DNA of 13,730 nucleotides from a virus: UHGV virus genome UHGV-0087644, one strand, 5' to 3'. The first letter of the stretch is position 1. Each line of letters starts with the position of its first letter. The notes beneath the pieces are model-generated. The model made no database searches and was not told the origin of the DNA. It saw only the letters and a program-made list of their open reading frames with translations. Below are positions 6,875-11,651 of this stretch, one piece after another. The position numbers and the translations under genes are program-made.

Positions 6875-6897
6875 AATAAAAAACCCACCGAAGTGGG
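6875..6897 (-). terminator. rho-independent terminator candidate (minus strand; tL1-like position after the first gene downstream of N)
   Basis: 5-bp GC stem CCCAC/GTGGG with CGAA loop (6884-6897), abutting the stop of the upstream ORF, followed on the minus transcript by a U-run (plus-strand ATAAAAAA at 6876-6883). Confidence 0.45.
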
Positions 6898-7242
6898 CTA
6901 TGACCATTTTTTATTTGGATTTCGTTGGTGAGCGTGATTAACAACTCTGTGCATTACATCCTCATATTTTTCATCTTCAATTTTTTCGACATCGCGAGGA
7001 AATGGTGTTGCTAATGCTTTGTCAACTTTGTCCATTGGTTCTTCATTAATCTTATATTCAGGACCGTCATCTATAGCATTAAATCCAGGTGTTACACCGT
7101 TTTTTAATGCATATGCTATCCTTTTTTCCCATCTCGCTATTCTCCTCCTGTCTCGAGATGTAAGACCTCTATCAGATACTTTTCTGTTTTGTCCGCGGTC
7201 AGGATTAACATAAATAGTCTTTTTCACCATAAGCATACTCAA
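6898..7242 (-). CDS. hypothetical protein with arginine-rich N-terminal region (114 aa)
   Basis: Track ORF; start overlaps N stop (ATGA); SRDRRRIARWEKRIAYALKNG is basic; followed directly by a terminator. Confidence 0.5.
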   Translation of the reverse strand: MSMLMVKKTIYVNPDRGQNRKVSDRGLTSRDRRRIARWEKRIAYALKNGVTPGFNAIDDGPEYKINEEPMDKVDKALATPFPRDVEKIEDEKYEDVMHRVVNHAHQRNPNKKWS

Positions 7243-7544
7243 TAAGCACCGTACGGTAGTTTACTGTACAATTTTATTTTTTGGACTGCATGTATTTTGT
7301 TTCCTAACGGGTTTGAATCTTTGTAATAAATACTTCTATTTTTTCGAACGACTTCTTCTTTCTTCTTGCAGCAAAGGCTTCCTAGTGATGCTGCTTTGTC
7401 TGCTCTGACGCAACCAGAGAGCTTTAGCGCAATTTTTCGCGCCAGTGCTTCATTACTGCGTCGCTCGGCAATAAGTTCTGCTCTGCGAGCTTTGTAGCGG
7501 CTTTTTGCCGTACCTTTGGATTCTTTCCAGACAATGGTTACCAT
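7239..7544 (-). CDS. N: N-like transcription antitermination protein (phi21-type arginine-rich motif)
   Basis: Track ORF 7239-7574 trimmed to ATG 7544 (SD AGGAG); N-terminus MVTIVWKESKGTAKSRYKARRAELIAERR matches the phi21 N arginine-rich RNA-binding peptide as I recall it; nutL lies upstream. Confidence 0.75.
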   Translation of the reverse strand: MVTIVWKESKGTAKSRYKARRAELIAERRSNEALARKIALKLSGCVRADKAASLGSLCCKKKEEVVRKNRSIYYKDSNPLGNKIHAVQKIKLYSKLPYGAY

Positions 7545-7654
7545 AATGGTCTCCTTTAAGTGGCTTTGGCGCATGACGCGTCGAGGTGCTTATCTTCTCG
7601 ATCGCTGTCTTGCAGCTGCAATTCGCGCCATCCCCAAAACCACTCAAGTTCTGG

Positions 7655-7695
7655 TCTCAACGGTTAGGTTGAGAGTCCGCCGATGTTAAAGAGCC
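7655..7695 (-). promoter_or_regulatory. nutL: boxA plus boxB hairpin
   Basis: Minus-strand reading: boxA GCTCTTTAACA (plus 7684-7695), 9-nt spacer, boxB with 7-bp stem TCTCAAC/GTTGAGA and loop CUAACC (plus 7655-7674). Between the predicted pL and N. Confidence 0.6.
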
Positions 7696-7740
7696 TGCCA
7701 ATCTGTTCCGTTTGGCTTCCAGCGTCCTGCTGATGGCTTA

Positions 7741-7770
7741 AATTTAAGACTTCTTAATTTATTGGTCAAG
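7741..7770 (-). promoter_or_regulatory. pL promoter candidate with overlapping oL operator
   Basis: Minus strand: -35 TTGACC (plus 7764-7769), about 17-bp spacer, weak -10 TAAATT; perfect palindrome TTAAGACTTCTTAA at 7744-7757 overlaps the spacer/-10. Confidence 0.4.
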
Positions 7771-7834
7771 TGCATTTTTGAAGAAAACTTAATTTTATGG
7801 GCGTGAATTTAGTTTGTCTTTGATTTTTAACGGG

Positions 7835-7860
7835 AAATAAAAAAGGGGCGAAAGCCCCTT
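7835..7860 (-). terminator. rho-independent terminator for the cI transcript
   Basis: Stem AAGGGGC/GCCCCTT (7843-7849 / 7854-7860) with GAAA loop, followed on the minus strand by UUUUAUUU; overlaps the cI stop codon. Confidence 0.55.
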
Positions 7861-8509
7861 AAGGAAGGTTTGCTAGCTTGGCATCAACGACAACGCCAAT
7901 GATTTTACAGTTCCCATTGATTTCAATCATTGGGTATTGTGGATTGAGTGGTTTCAGGAATTTTCTACCGGCATCAATAACTAACTTTTTGAATGTCGCC
8001 TCGTTTTCCCCTTCAAGTTTGGCGACTACCAGCTTTCCATTACGTGGTTCGACTTCTGGGTCGACGAGAATAATCATCCCCTCAGGAATACTCAGTCCTG
8101 CCGGGGCAGTCATTGAATCGCCTTTAACGTCGAGCCAAAAAGAGTCTTCAGAACAATCTACCGTTGTGTCGTACCAGTTATCTATTGCACGCCTATGATA
8201 TGGCTCTACAGCTTCCATCCAACATCCTGCGCTTACCCAACTAATTAGAGGATACGAACCTCTTGGATCATGCCTGCTGTGATAGGCAATGTTTGAAAGA
8301 CTATCCTCTCCTTTCAACAGGTAATCAGGGGAGCACTGCAAAGCCTTGGCTAAGGCCAATAGGTTTTCGCCATTGGGCTCAGTTTCAGATCGCTCCCATT
8401 GGGAAATAGCAACATTAGACACGCCAACCATCTTGCCAAGGGCAGCCTGCCTAATCTTGAGTTCTTTTCTGCGAGCGCGAATACGCTCACCCATCAGTTG
8501 TGTATTCAT
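7859..8509 (-). CDS. cI: CI-type prophage repressor (HTH + S24 LexA-like peptidase domain)
   Basis: 216-aa track ORF; N-terminal HTH (QAALGKMVGVSNVAISQWER); C-terminal FWLDVKGDSMTAPAGLSIPEGMIILVDP...ATFKKL...FLKPLNPQYPMIE closely parallels the lambda CI C-terminal domain. Confidence 0.9.
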   Translation of the reverse strand: MNTQLMGERIRARRKELKIRQAALGKMVGVSNVAISQWERSETEPNGENLLALAKALQCSPDYLLKGEDSLSNIAYHSRHDPRGSYPLISWVSAGCWMEAVEPYHRRAIDNWYDTTVDCSEDSFWLDVKGDSMTAPAGLSIPEGMIILVDPEVEPRNGKLVVAKLEGENEATFKKLVIDAGRKFLKPLNPQYPMIEINGNCKIIGVVVDAKLANLP

Positions 8510-8589
8510 AGTTAAGACATCTTAAATAAACTTGACTTAAGATTCCTTTGGTGGATAATTTAAGTGTTCTTTAACTTCGGAGCGAGTCT
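8510..8589. promoter_or_regulatory. oR operator region with divergent pR / pRM promoters
   Basis: Palindrome TTAAGACATCTTAA (8512-8525); pR -35 TTGACT (8532-8537) and -10 GATAAT (8554-8559); degenerate operator-like TTAAGTGTTCTTTAA (about 8559-8574); SD GGAG before cro ATG 8590. Confidence 0.65.
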
Positions 8590-8775
8590 ATGTACAAAAA
8601 AGATGTTATTGACCACTTCGGAACCCAGCGTGCTGTTGCTAAAGCACTAGGCATTAGCGATGCAGCAGTCTCTCAGTGGAAAGAAGTTATCCCAGAGAAA
8701 GACGCCTATCGATTGGAAATCGTTACAGCTGGCGCCCTGAAGTATCAAGAAAGTGCTTACCGCCAAGCGGCATAA
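8590..8775 (+). CDS. cro: Cro-like repressor (YdaS/Cro HTH family)
   Basis: 61-aa track ORF immediately downstream of pR, divergent from cI; HTH region GTQRAVAKALGISDAAVSQW. Confidence 0.75.
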   Translation: MYKKDVIDHFGTQRAVAKALGISDAAVSQWKEVIPEKDAYRLEIVTAGALKYQESAYRQAA

Positions 8776-8781
8776 GCAAAT

Positions 8782-8822
8782 TGCTCTTTAACAGTTCTGG
8801 CCTTTCACCTCTAACCGGGTGA
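8782..8822 (+). promoter_or_regulatory. nutR: boxA plus boxB hairpin
   Basis: boxA TGCTCTTTAACA (8782-8793), 11-nt spacer, boxB stem UCACCU/GGGUGA (one G-U pair) with loop CUAACC (8805-8822), the same loop as nutL. Confidence 0.6.
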
Positions 8823-8890
8823 GCAAACATCAGCGGCAAATCCATTGGGTGTGCCGCTATAACTCAATATCAATATAGGAAAATTAACAA

Positions 8891-9187
8891 ATGGCACAAG
8901 CAAGCTACAGCAAGCCAACACAGCGAGAAATTGATCGCGCTGAAACTGATTTACTCATCAACCTGTCAACGCTTACCCAGCGCGGTCTGGCAAAGATGAT
9001 TGGCTGTCATGAATCGAAGATAAGCAGAACGGACTGGCGGTTTATTGCTTCGGTCCTGTGTGCTTTCGGAATGGCATCAGACATCAGTCCGATTAGCAGG
9101 GCTTTTAAGTATGCGCTTGATGAAATCACAAAGAAAAAATCCCCGGCCGCCACCGAGGATTTTAAGCAAATTGATATGCAATTCTGA
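8891..9187 (+). CDS. cII: CII transcriptional activator
   Basis: 98-aa track ORF; ...LAKMIGCHESKISRTDWRFI... and C-terminal KKKSPAATEDFKQIDMQF parallel lambda CII (HTH and C-terminal tail). Confidence 0.85.
   Translation: MAQASYSKPTQREIDRAETDLLINLSTLTQRGLAKMIGCHESKISRTDWRFIASVLCAFGMASDISPISRAFKYALDEITKKKSPAATEDFKQIDMQF
8900..8913 (-). promoter_or_regulatory. candidate CII-binding site (TTGC-N6-TTGC) of a pRE-like leftward promoter
   Basis: Plus strand GCAAGCTACAGCAA, i.e. TTGC-N6-TTGC on the minus strand, inside the first codons of cII, where lambda pRE lies. Confidence 0.4.
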
Positions 9188-9219: not shown

Positions 9220-9381
9220 ATGACAAAACGTCGTAAGAAATACCAGGAAAAAGAAGAGATTCGACACCCTGATTCACCTGAGGGATTAGTGGTAGCCGCA
9301 GCAAATAACAGGGCGTTCGCAGAGCGCCTTGTTGGTGTTTACAGACTAGCCAAAGCAGGAGTGAAACATGGGCGTCGTTAA
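9220..9381 (+). CDS. possible small basic protein (53 aa) between cII and O
   Basis: Not in track; ATG 9220 preceded by AGGAG; [53 protein letters not shown]; 3' end overlaps the O start by 14 nt. Confidence 0.3.
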   Translation: MTKRRKKYQEKEEIRHPDSPEGLVVAAANNRAFAERLVGVYRLAKAGVKHGRR

Positions 9382-10198
9382 GTTAGCTGATTACAGGCCT
9401 CAACTGGAGGTCGTGGAGCATCGCGTGGCAGAACTCGAAGATGGCTACACTCGGACTGCAAACACACTGTTAGAAGCCGCCATGCTTTCTGGACTTACTC
9501 TACATCAGTTACTGATTGTTATGGCTGTGTGGCGCAAGACATACGGTTACAACAAAAAAATAGATTGGATCGGAAACGAACAGTTCGCTGAACTCACTGG
9601 CATGGCACCAACCAAATGCTCTACCGCCAAAAACGAGCTTATCAGAATGGGAGTTCTCATTCAGGTTGGGCGTCAAGTTGGTATGAATACAAACATTTCC
9701 GAGTGGAAAACGAAAGTTAACGGATTCGGTAAAACATTTACCAATTCGGTAAAACAAACCTTCACCAAATCGGTAAAAAGCAATTTACCGAATCAGTCAA
9801 ACACAAAAGACAATATACAAAAGACAATAAATACAAATACCCCCTTACCCCCTAACGGGGATGGCGATGGGCAGGTTAAACCTGAACGTCGCAAGGCAGA
9901 ACGAATCGACTACGAATCCTTCCTGAACGCCTACAACACCGAAGTCGGTGACAGACTTCCACACGCTGTTGCGGTCAACGAGAAACGAAAACGCCGCCTG
10001 AAGAAAATCATCCCGCAACTGAAAACGCCAAACGTGGACGGTTTCAGGGCGTATGTCAGGGCTTTTGTGCATCAGGCCAAGCCGTTTTACTTCGGAGACA
10101 ACGACACGGGCTGGACGGCTGATTTTGATTACCTGCTTAGGGAAGACTCGTTAACGGGAGTTCGGGAAGGGAAGTTTGCAGACAGGGGGATTGCATGA
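9368..10198 (+). CDS. O: replication initiation protein O homolog
   Basis: 276-aa track ORF after cII; SD AGGAG; iterons and an A/T-rich stretch inside the coding region; stop overlaps helicase start (ATGA). Confidence 0.75.
9724..9840. repeat. origin of replication: iterons plus A/T-rich region inside the O gene
   Basis: Direct repeats ATTCGGTAAAAC (9724-9735, 9744-9755), ATCGGTAAAAAG (9768-9779), inverted copy TTTACCGAAT (9784-9793), then A-rich 9801-9840. Confidence 0.6.
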
Positions 10199-11571
10199 AA
10201 CAGGATATCGAAGCGAGCGTTATCGGTGGCCTGCTGATTGGTGGATTAACACCAACCGCCAGCGACGTTCTGGCAACGCTGGATCCGGAAGCGTTTTCAA
10301 TTCCACTCTACCGGAAAGCCTTCGAGGTTATCCGCAAGCAGGCGAGAAACAGAAACCTAATCGATGCGCTGATGGTTGCCGAGGCGTGCGGAGAGGAGCA
10401 TTTCACGTCAATCCTGATGACCAGCAAAAACTGCCCGAGTGCCGCAAACCTGAAGGGATATGCCGGAATGGTCGCGGATAACTATCACCGCCGTCTGGTT
10501 CTGGAAATCATGGATGAAATGCGTGAACCAATTCAGAGCGGAACCATCGACGCATCGAGTCAGGCGATGGATGAGCTTGTAAAGCGTCTTTCAGCCATCA
10601 GAAAGCCCCGTGACGAGGTTAAACCTGTACGGTTAGGGGAAATCATCACTGACTACACTGACACGCTTGACAGGCGCCTGAGGAACGGAGAAGAGTCAGA
10701 TACCCTGAAGACCGGAATCGAAGAACTTGACGCCATCACCGGAGGGATGAACGCAGAAGACCTGGTGATAATCGCTGCTCGTCCTGGTATGGGGAAAACC
10801 GAGCTGGCGCTGAAGATTGCCGAAGGCGTTGCAAGCCGAGTTATTCCTGGTTCTGACGTCCGGCGCGGAGTGTTGATTTTCTCGATGGAAATGAGCGCAT
10901 TGCAGATTGCAGAGCGAAGCATTGCCAACGCCGGGAGGATGTCGGTTAGCGTGCTGCGAAATCCTGCATCGATGGATGACGAAGGCTGGGCGCGCGTTGC
11001 TAACGGCATGAGTCAGCTTGCAGATTTGGATGTATGGGTAGTCGATGCCTCGCGGTTATCGGTCGAAGAAATACGCTCAATCGCAGAACGGCACAAACAG
11101 GAAAATCCAAACCTGTCACTCATCATGGCGGATTATCTTGGCCTGATTGAGAAGCCGAAAGCAGACCGCAACGACCTCGCAATTGCTCACATCTCCGGAA
11201 GCCTGAAGGCGATGGCGAAAGACCTGAAAACGCCAGTTATCTCCCTGAGTCAGCTTTCGCGCGATGTTGAGAAGCGACCAAACAAACGTCCGACAAACGC
11301 AGATTTGCGTGATTCTGGAAGCATTGAGCAGGACGCAGACTCAATCATCATGCTCTATCGGGAAGCTGTATATGACGAGAACAGTAGCGCCGCGCCATTT
11401 GCTGAAATCATTGTGACGAAAAACCGTTTTGGCTCACTTGGTACGGTTTACCAGCGGTTCTGCAACGGACACTTTGTTGCATGTGACCAGGATGAAGCCA
11501 GACAGATTTGCACAGCATCAAATGCACCTGCTGCGCGTGGCAGACGATATGCACAAGGGGCTGACGTATGA
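10195..11571 (+). CDS. DnaB-family replicative DNA helicase (P22 gene 12-like)
   Basis: 458-aa track ORF; Walker [14 protein letters not shown]; DnaB-like N-terminal region and RecA-like C-terminal domain; coupled to O. Confidence 0.85.
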
Positions 11572-11651
11572 CCATCTACATCACTGAGCTGATAGCAGGC
11601 CTGCTGGTAATCGCAGGCCTTTTTATTTGGGGGAGGGTAAATCGTGGCTGA
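11568..11651 (+). CDS. possible 27-aa hydrophobic peptide
   Basis: ATG overlaps helicase stop (ATGA); [27 protein letters not shown]. Could be spurious. Confidence 0.2.

Follow-up and report, generated by a model that had tools for sequence, protein, structure and literature searches.

Nut sites with CUAACC boxB loops and an N protein with the RNA-binding region of phage 21 N in a mEp235-like lambdoid immunity region

Two boxA elements, each followed by a hairpin with a CUAACC loop, in a 13,730-nucleotide stretch of the virus genome UHGV-0087644 (referred to here as the window) are almost certainly nutL and nutR of a phage 21-type system for N antitermination, which is located in the immunity region of a mEp235-like lambdoid prophage. 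The region was mapped by an open reading frame map, a Pfam scan, a promoter scan, and a terminator scan, and it is a standard lambdoid immunity region (Table 1). The nutL site is located between pL and N and follows the pL start by about 40 nt, and on the rightward transcript nutR comes after cro and before cII. Each nut site is on the transcribed strand, with nutL behind pL and nutR behind pR and cro, both in the expected orientation, and the operon orientation proposed in the first-pass annotation agrees with this map. The terminator that directly follows nun is the first leftward one that an N-modified polymerase must pass.

Table 1. Positions of the features of the immunity region and early operons in the window
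Feature	Position	Strand	Basis
Intrinsic terminator right after nun	6882..6899	-	Terminator scan
nun gene, HK022-type transcription termination factor targeting lambda-type boxB	6898..7236	-	PDB 6ALG identity; mEp235 annotation Nun
N gene, 101 aa, small basic ORF with arginine-rich motif	7239..7544	-	
Predicted nun promoter, -35 ATGCAG (7291..7286), -10 TACAGT (7268..7263)	7263..7291	-	Identical to annotated HK022/O276 nun promoter (NC_049951)
Long N-leader hairpin, between boxB-L and N Shine-Dalgarno	7556..7647	-	Folding; consensus of relatives
nutL boxB, 7-bp stem UCUCAAC/GUUGAGA and CUAACC hexaloop	7655..7674	-	Folding; phage 21 nutL stem_loop
nutL boxA, GCUCUUUAACA	7684..7694	-	Exact match; NusB/E consensus fit; phage 21 boxA-L annotated here
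pL transcription start	~7734	-	Phage 21 annotation mapped with offset +5821
pL promoter, TTGACC / 17 nt / TAAATT	7741..7769	-	Promoter scan
oL operators (OL1-3), overlapping pL	~7742-7823	-	Phage 21 annotation; repeated operator-like sequences
Intrinsic terminator 3' of cI	7860..7843	-	Terminator scan
cI-type repressor (HTH_3 and Peptidase_S24)	7859..8509	-	ORF map, Pfam
pR promoter, TTGACT / 16 nt / GATAAT, overlapping oR operators	8532..8559	+	Promoter scan, phage 21 annotation; repeated operator-like sequences
cro, P22_Cro family	8590..8775	+	Pfam, E 5.7e-28
nutR boxA, UGCUCUUUAACA	8782..8793	+	Motif search; NusB/E consensus fit; phage 21 annotation
nutR boxB, 6-bp stem UCACCU/GGGUGA and CUAACC hexaloop	8805..8822	+	Folding; phage 21 nutR stem_loop
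tR1	~8870		Phage 21 annotation
cII, first gene downstream of nutR and tR1 region	8891..9187	+	Pfam, phage 21 annotation
O-like initiator	9368..10198	+	
DnaB-type helicase	10195..11571	+	
Intrinsic terminator after helicase gene	11597..11620	+	Terminator scan

In the motif search, the boxA sequence GCTCTTTAACA was found as exactly two exact copies in the 13.7-kb window, one at 7694..7684 on the minus strand and the other at 8783..8793 on the plus strand, and the chance expectation for the motif with at most one mismatch is 0.28 matches in the window. A T at position 8782 is directly 5' of the nutR motif and extends it to TGCTCTTTAACA. NusB/E recognizes a boxA with the consensus GYTCTTTAANA (PMC5725501). 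Both copies fit this consensus and each of them is 5' of its boxB, with a boxA-to-boxB spacer of 9 nt in nutL and 11 nt in nutR, which are the distances of 9-11 nt given earlier for the two transcripts.

RNA folding bore out a stem with a 6-nt CUAACC loop at both sites. The isolated nutL hairpin has a free energy of -7.4 kcal/mol (z -6.2) and the isolated nutR hairpin, whose closing pair is a U-G wobble, has a free energy of -7.3 kcal/mol (z -2.6). The nutR hairpin is retained in a 60-nt context. The nutL hairpin is present in both the minimum-energy and the centroid structures of the 200-nt leader; in a 66-nt context the minimum-energy fold is a competing structure, and boxB is still in the centroid. 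CTAACC occurs in four copies over both strands of the window, and stems are found at two of the four, exactly those that are 3' of a boxA (7 pairs counting G-U), against 0 and 1 pair at the remaining copies. Moreover, the combined boxA-spacer-loop pattern appeared in 0 of 200 shuffles. With two exact boxA copies and two boxA-linked stems in addition to this, the observation made from the sequence was correct as written. The stems of nutL and nutR differ around the same loop, as is classic for a nutL/nutR pair, and differing stems around an invariant loop are evidence for loop-specific recognition. The lambda-type boxB loops GAAAA and GAAGA were absent at both nut sites. An Rfam scan of the whole window with E up to 1 gave zero matches; there is no curated family for the nut/boxB of the phi21 type.

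The arginine-rich motif GTAKSRYKARRAELIAERR corresponds to residues 11-29 of N in the ORF that starts from the ATG at 7544. The sole PDB sequence match of N was 1NYB, a 22-residue peptide ("Probable regulatory protein N"), which is 100% identical to residues 8-29. According to PMC12550061, phi21 boxB in 1NYB has a CUAACC hexaloop, contrasted with the GACAA pentaloop of P22. Therefore, the peptide had been rightly identified as phi21 N, the loop of phi21 boxB is CUAACC and not an unrelated sequence, and the N-boxB pair is internally consistent as had been claimed. The pair had also been taken to support the assignment of the N start. The N-boxB match alone does not fix the start, but the start at 7544 is supported by a Shine-Dalgarno sequence, AGGAG, 7 nt upstream (GGAG at 7554..7551), and by the annotations of phage 21 and mEp235, in which N starts at the same position.

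N has the same residues 1-57 as phage 21 N and diverges from it over the last 44, with an overall identity of 80%. The alignment thus did not give orthology to phage 21 N over the whole length with the C-terminal polymerase-binding region included. N is phi21-type only in the RNA-binding and central part, and the tail is that of the mEp235/HK022-linked allele. The divergent tail touches the name of the allele and not the RNA-recognition class. Since the C-terminal polymerase-contacting part differs from that of phage 21, the case for activity of this allele is that the viable phages mEp235 and mEpX1 carry it. In HK022 and O276, the segment directly 5' of nun is ~98% identical to the DNA that encodes the tail (~7352..7239), and there it is a remnant of N that is interrupted by a stop codon and does not code for protein. 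The Pfam model PF25694 (N_peptide) matched N residues 4-57 with 18.4 bits (E 0.0032), below its curated gathering cut-off of 27.9, and evidently this model covers the short and fast-evolving N family poorly.

Positions 7200-8900 of the window are 99.6% identical to mEp235 over their whole length, and from position 7322 rightward there is 98.7% identity to phage 21, lambda imm21, and DE3. When the phage 21 record OL657228 was placed on the window with a constant offset of 5821, its annotated features fell at 7687..7694 (boxA-L), 7655..7674 (nutL), 7734 (pL start), 8783..8790 (boxA-R), and 8805..8822 (nutR); OL1-3 and tR1 are annotated in this record too. In the alignment, the window, phage 21, and mEp235 have the same nutR with the same flanking sequence, and nutL of the window has a single G/A change in the spacer relative to both phages. 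Phage 21 thus matches the window in boxA, boxB stems, CUAACC loops, their positions, and N residues 1-57. However, phage 21 has ral downstream of N where the window has nun, and it encodes lambda-type O and P, whereas the window encodes an O-like protein and a DnaB-type helicase. The phage mEp235 (JQ182731 / NC_019708) has N (99%), nun, cI, cro, and cII in the same order as the window. In mEpX1 the common part is limited to the nun-N-nutL segment (window 7200-7736, 98.5% identical). The records of both phages have a "putative Nut boxA" annotated, and boxB is absent from their annotation. Elsewhere the mosaic of the window is unlike that of these phages, and any single phage record accounts for at most 54% of the window.

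The architecture of boxA, short spacer, boxB hairpin, N arginine-rich helix, and Nus factors is like that of lambda. In lambda, the boxB pentaloop is GAAAA or GAAGA and its fold is GNRA-like, and boxA reads CGCUCUUA. In contrast, the window has the hexaloop CUAACC, and its boxA is the full rrn-like GCUCUUUAACA. The N/nut architecture of P22 is also alike, cro and cI of the window are P22-like in family, and the N proteins of the P22 group are ~40% identical to the N of the window. The boxB loop of P22 is the GACAA pentaloop, by the account in PMC12550061, whereas that of the window is the CUAACC hexaloop.

Between boxB-L and the Shine-Dalgarno sequence of N there is a long predicted leader hairpin, which is conserved. 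The 200-nt leader folds with -70.3 kcal/mol (z -4.7), and four pairs with compensatory changes are present in the consensus fold of 14 relatives. The hairpin begins 7 nt past the boxB-L stem (2 of these 7 bases pair and extend the stem) and stops 2 nt short of the Shine-Dalgarno sequence. An alternative local 8-bp hairpin (7653..7633) just after boxB-L fits the data, with two compensatory pairs. The local and the long hairpin use a common 3' arm, the long one is better supported, and both may form in turn. In one relative (L068:1085-1283, minus strand), a longer and unrelated insert with a GTTCGATACCC-like stretch stands in place of the apex of the leader hairpin, and compensatory changes preserve the hairpin base. 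The insert was considered as a tRNA fragment, and this was rejected: ARAGORN finds no tRNA in the locus. Lambda and the window are alike in having a structured leader of ~190-220 nt between nutL and N. The lambda leader was reportedly studied by Wilson et al. in 1997 and 2002, and RNase III cleavage is said to be part of that work. Lambda N bound at nutL represses its own translation via the structured leader, as stated in PMC5725501.

Other repeats were observed on the plus strand of the window. A 7-bp inverted repeat (AGCGGCA ... TGCCGCT) is located at 8832-8858 between nutR and cII. Its 3' side has a GT-rich GGGTGTG that is reminiscent of boxC, and it is near the tR1 annotated in phage 21. 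The repeat has no T tract, and thus if it is a terminator it is probably Rho-dependent. Four direct repeats of ~23 nt (consensus ...TTTACCAATTCGGTAAAA) were found at 9712-9801 inside the O-like replication gene, and these are most likely origin iterons.

We scanned IMG/VR for a boxA followed by CTAACC 12-22 nt later, and 120 loci were returned. Phi21-type nutL was found in 54 out of the 120 loci and nutR in 43; the spacers vary, and stems and loop are conserved. An N-like protein carrying G(T/A)AKSRYKARR accompanies the phi21-type nutL in all 54 loci and is absent from the 60 loci in which phi21-type nut sites are missing. About 60 loci with boxA and CTAACC were considered as boxB variants and rejected, as they have no stem and their boxA contexts are unrelated. 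The nutL boxB stem is invariant in all 54 loci that carry nutL, so there is no covariation within nutL. An arginine-rich motif variant, ...RRAAKIEQAQ, pairs with a variant of the nutR stem, GCUCACCU/GGGUAAGC, in which the loop is still CUAACC. Furthermore, N is modular in these loci (L003-L122, for example L006, L024, L033, and L068), with the same arginine-rich motif joined to at least four C-terminal tails. The ...K(L/P)PYGAY tail, frameshifted variants included, is followed by nun in 27 out of 27 loci, and the other tails never are. Parts of the nutL-N module were found in 1114 of the 5426 complete E. coli genomes, and in 235 of them at least 80% of the module is covered. Each segment of the window has relatives at 95-99% identity. 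Since at most 54% of the window is found per phage record, and at most 65% in one place per complete E. coli genome, the window is a new mosaic.

The gene directly after the N stop codon encodes Nun. It shares 107 of 109 residues with HK022 Nun (PDB 6ALG chain N), and its arginine-rich motif is that of the peptide solved with lambda boxB (1HJI). The similarity to HK022 (98% identity in the Nun protein) continues for ~130 nt upstream of nun, which in the window are the last ~130 nt of N, are nearly identical (about 98%), and include the annotated nun promoter. In the window, the predicted nun promoter is inside the 3' end of the N coding sequence and is conserved base for base with NC_049951. 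Because the promoter is inside N and a terminator is directly after nun, nun looks like a self-contained promoter-gene-terminator insert. HK022 itself is without a working N, has a 3' relic of the gene interrupted by a stop codon, and uses putL RNA for antitermination. The putL segment of HK022/O276 (L123, 873-935) gave no alignment with the window, and neither this alignment nor the Rfam scan (E up to 1) revealed an HK022-type put RNA with its double hairpin directly 3' of pL or pR. Nun works through boxB hairpins and boxA, and at its physiological level lambda nut transcripts are the only ones on which it acts (PMC5386594). Nun most likely excludes lambda-type phages and spares the resident CUAACC sites. 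The phage encodes two arginine-rich motif proteins of opposite effects, and their boxB specificities presumably differ.

The antitermination complex of N-boxB, NusB/E-boxA, NusA, and NusG has been reviewed (PMC8632103). By analogy with the established N systems of lambda, 21, and P22, binding and antitermination would also take place here. The leftward transcript from pL and the rightward transcript from pR, the latter after cro, would each present a boxA and then the CUAACC boxB hairpin. The arginine-rich helix of N (residues ~8-29) would contact the boxB loop, and boxA would be bound by NusB/NusE. The complex would be completed by NusA and NusG, and would remain on RNA polymerase and suppress termination. 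On the left, the modified polymerase would pass the terminator after nun, and on the right it would pass tR1 and the terminator after the helicase gene.

Hairpins with loops of six bases are not rare in the window (82 with stems of at least 6 pairs, G-U allowed), and the z-scores are near zero in 60-66-nt contexts, as would suit chance inverted repeats that happen to stand beside chance boxA-like words and have no function. However, no shuffle reproduced the boxA-spacer-loop pattern, the sites have the orientation expected behind pL and pR, their co-occurrence with the cognate N is perfect, and they correspond base for base to the annotated nut sites of phage 21. This identity to the phage 21 nutL and nutR already refutes a chance origin, the probability of which is practically nil. 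Another explanation is that the nut sites are relics in a decayed prophage, with the sequence intact and the use lost. It would be in line with the new mosaic, of which 65% is the most that any phage or complete E. coli genome has in one place. Yet pL, nutL, N, cI, cro, nutR, cII, O, and the helicase gene are all intact and collinear, and the identity of 99.6% is to a plaque-forming phage, mEp235, and so we consider decay very unlikely.

The CUAACC hairpins might instead be targets of the co-resident Nun, in place of or besides N, so that termination would be self-directed. A near-exact HK022 Nun is indeed encoded directly after N, and boxB and boxA are the elements that Nun uses (PMC5386594). 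On the other hand, the arginine-rich motif of this Nun is that of the lambda boxB-bound 1HJI peptide, and physiological Nun is limited to lambda nut transcripts (PMC5386594). The fold of the CUAACC hexaloop differs from the GNRA-like lambda pentaloop, as described in PMC12550061. Moreover, a phage that terminates its own early transcripts would be inviable, yet mEp235 is viable. Targeting by Nun is thus extremely unlikely, and the sites are best read as nutL and nutR of the phage 21-type N system.

The nut sites and N are already known, being a textbook element that is annotated in public records. As the structure of the phi21 N-boxB pair has been solved and its genome is annotated, there is nothing new here for antitermination biology. 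For annotation, the finding is of value since it gives the orientation of both early operons, the N start, and the imm21-like immunity type of the prophage. More tentatively, the N-nun junction could be one functional unit, in which N serves the phage's own CUAACC boxB and Nun acts against lambda-type invaders, and from which the HK022 layout is derived; we regard this as possible and somewhat doubtful. If it is true, the constitutive nun promoter, defined in HK022, would be within the tail-coding sequence of a working phi21-type N. The repressed prophage would make Nun, which is specific for lambda-type boxB, and thereby sabotage lambda-type invaders, and once induced it would turn to N, with its specificity for CUAACC boxB. 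The arginine-rich motifs of N and Nun would then be orthogonal, and therefore Nun would spare the phage's own nut sites. The N-less, put-based layout of HK022 would be a derivative that keeps just a 3' relic of N. The N tail and nun move as one module, and the predicted nun promoter is within N; both observations bear on the swapping of exclusion genes in lambdoid phages and on how HK022 may have lost N.
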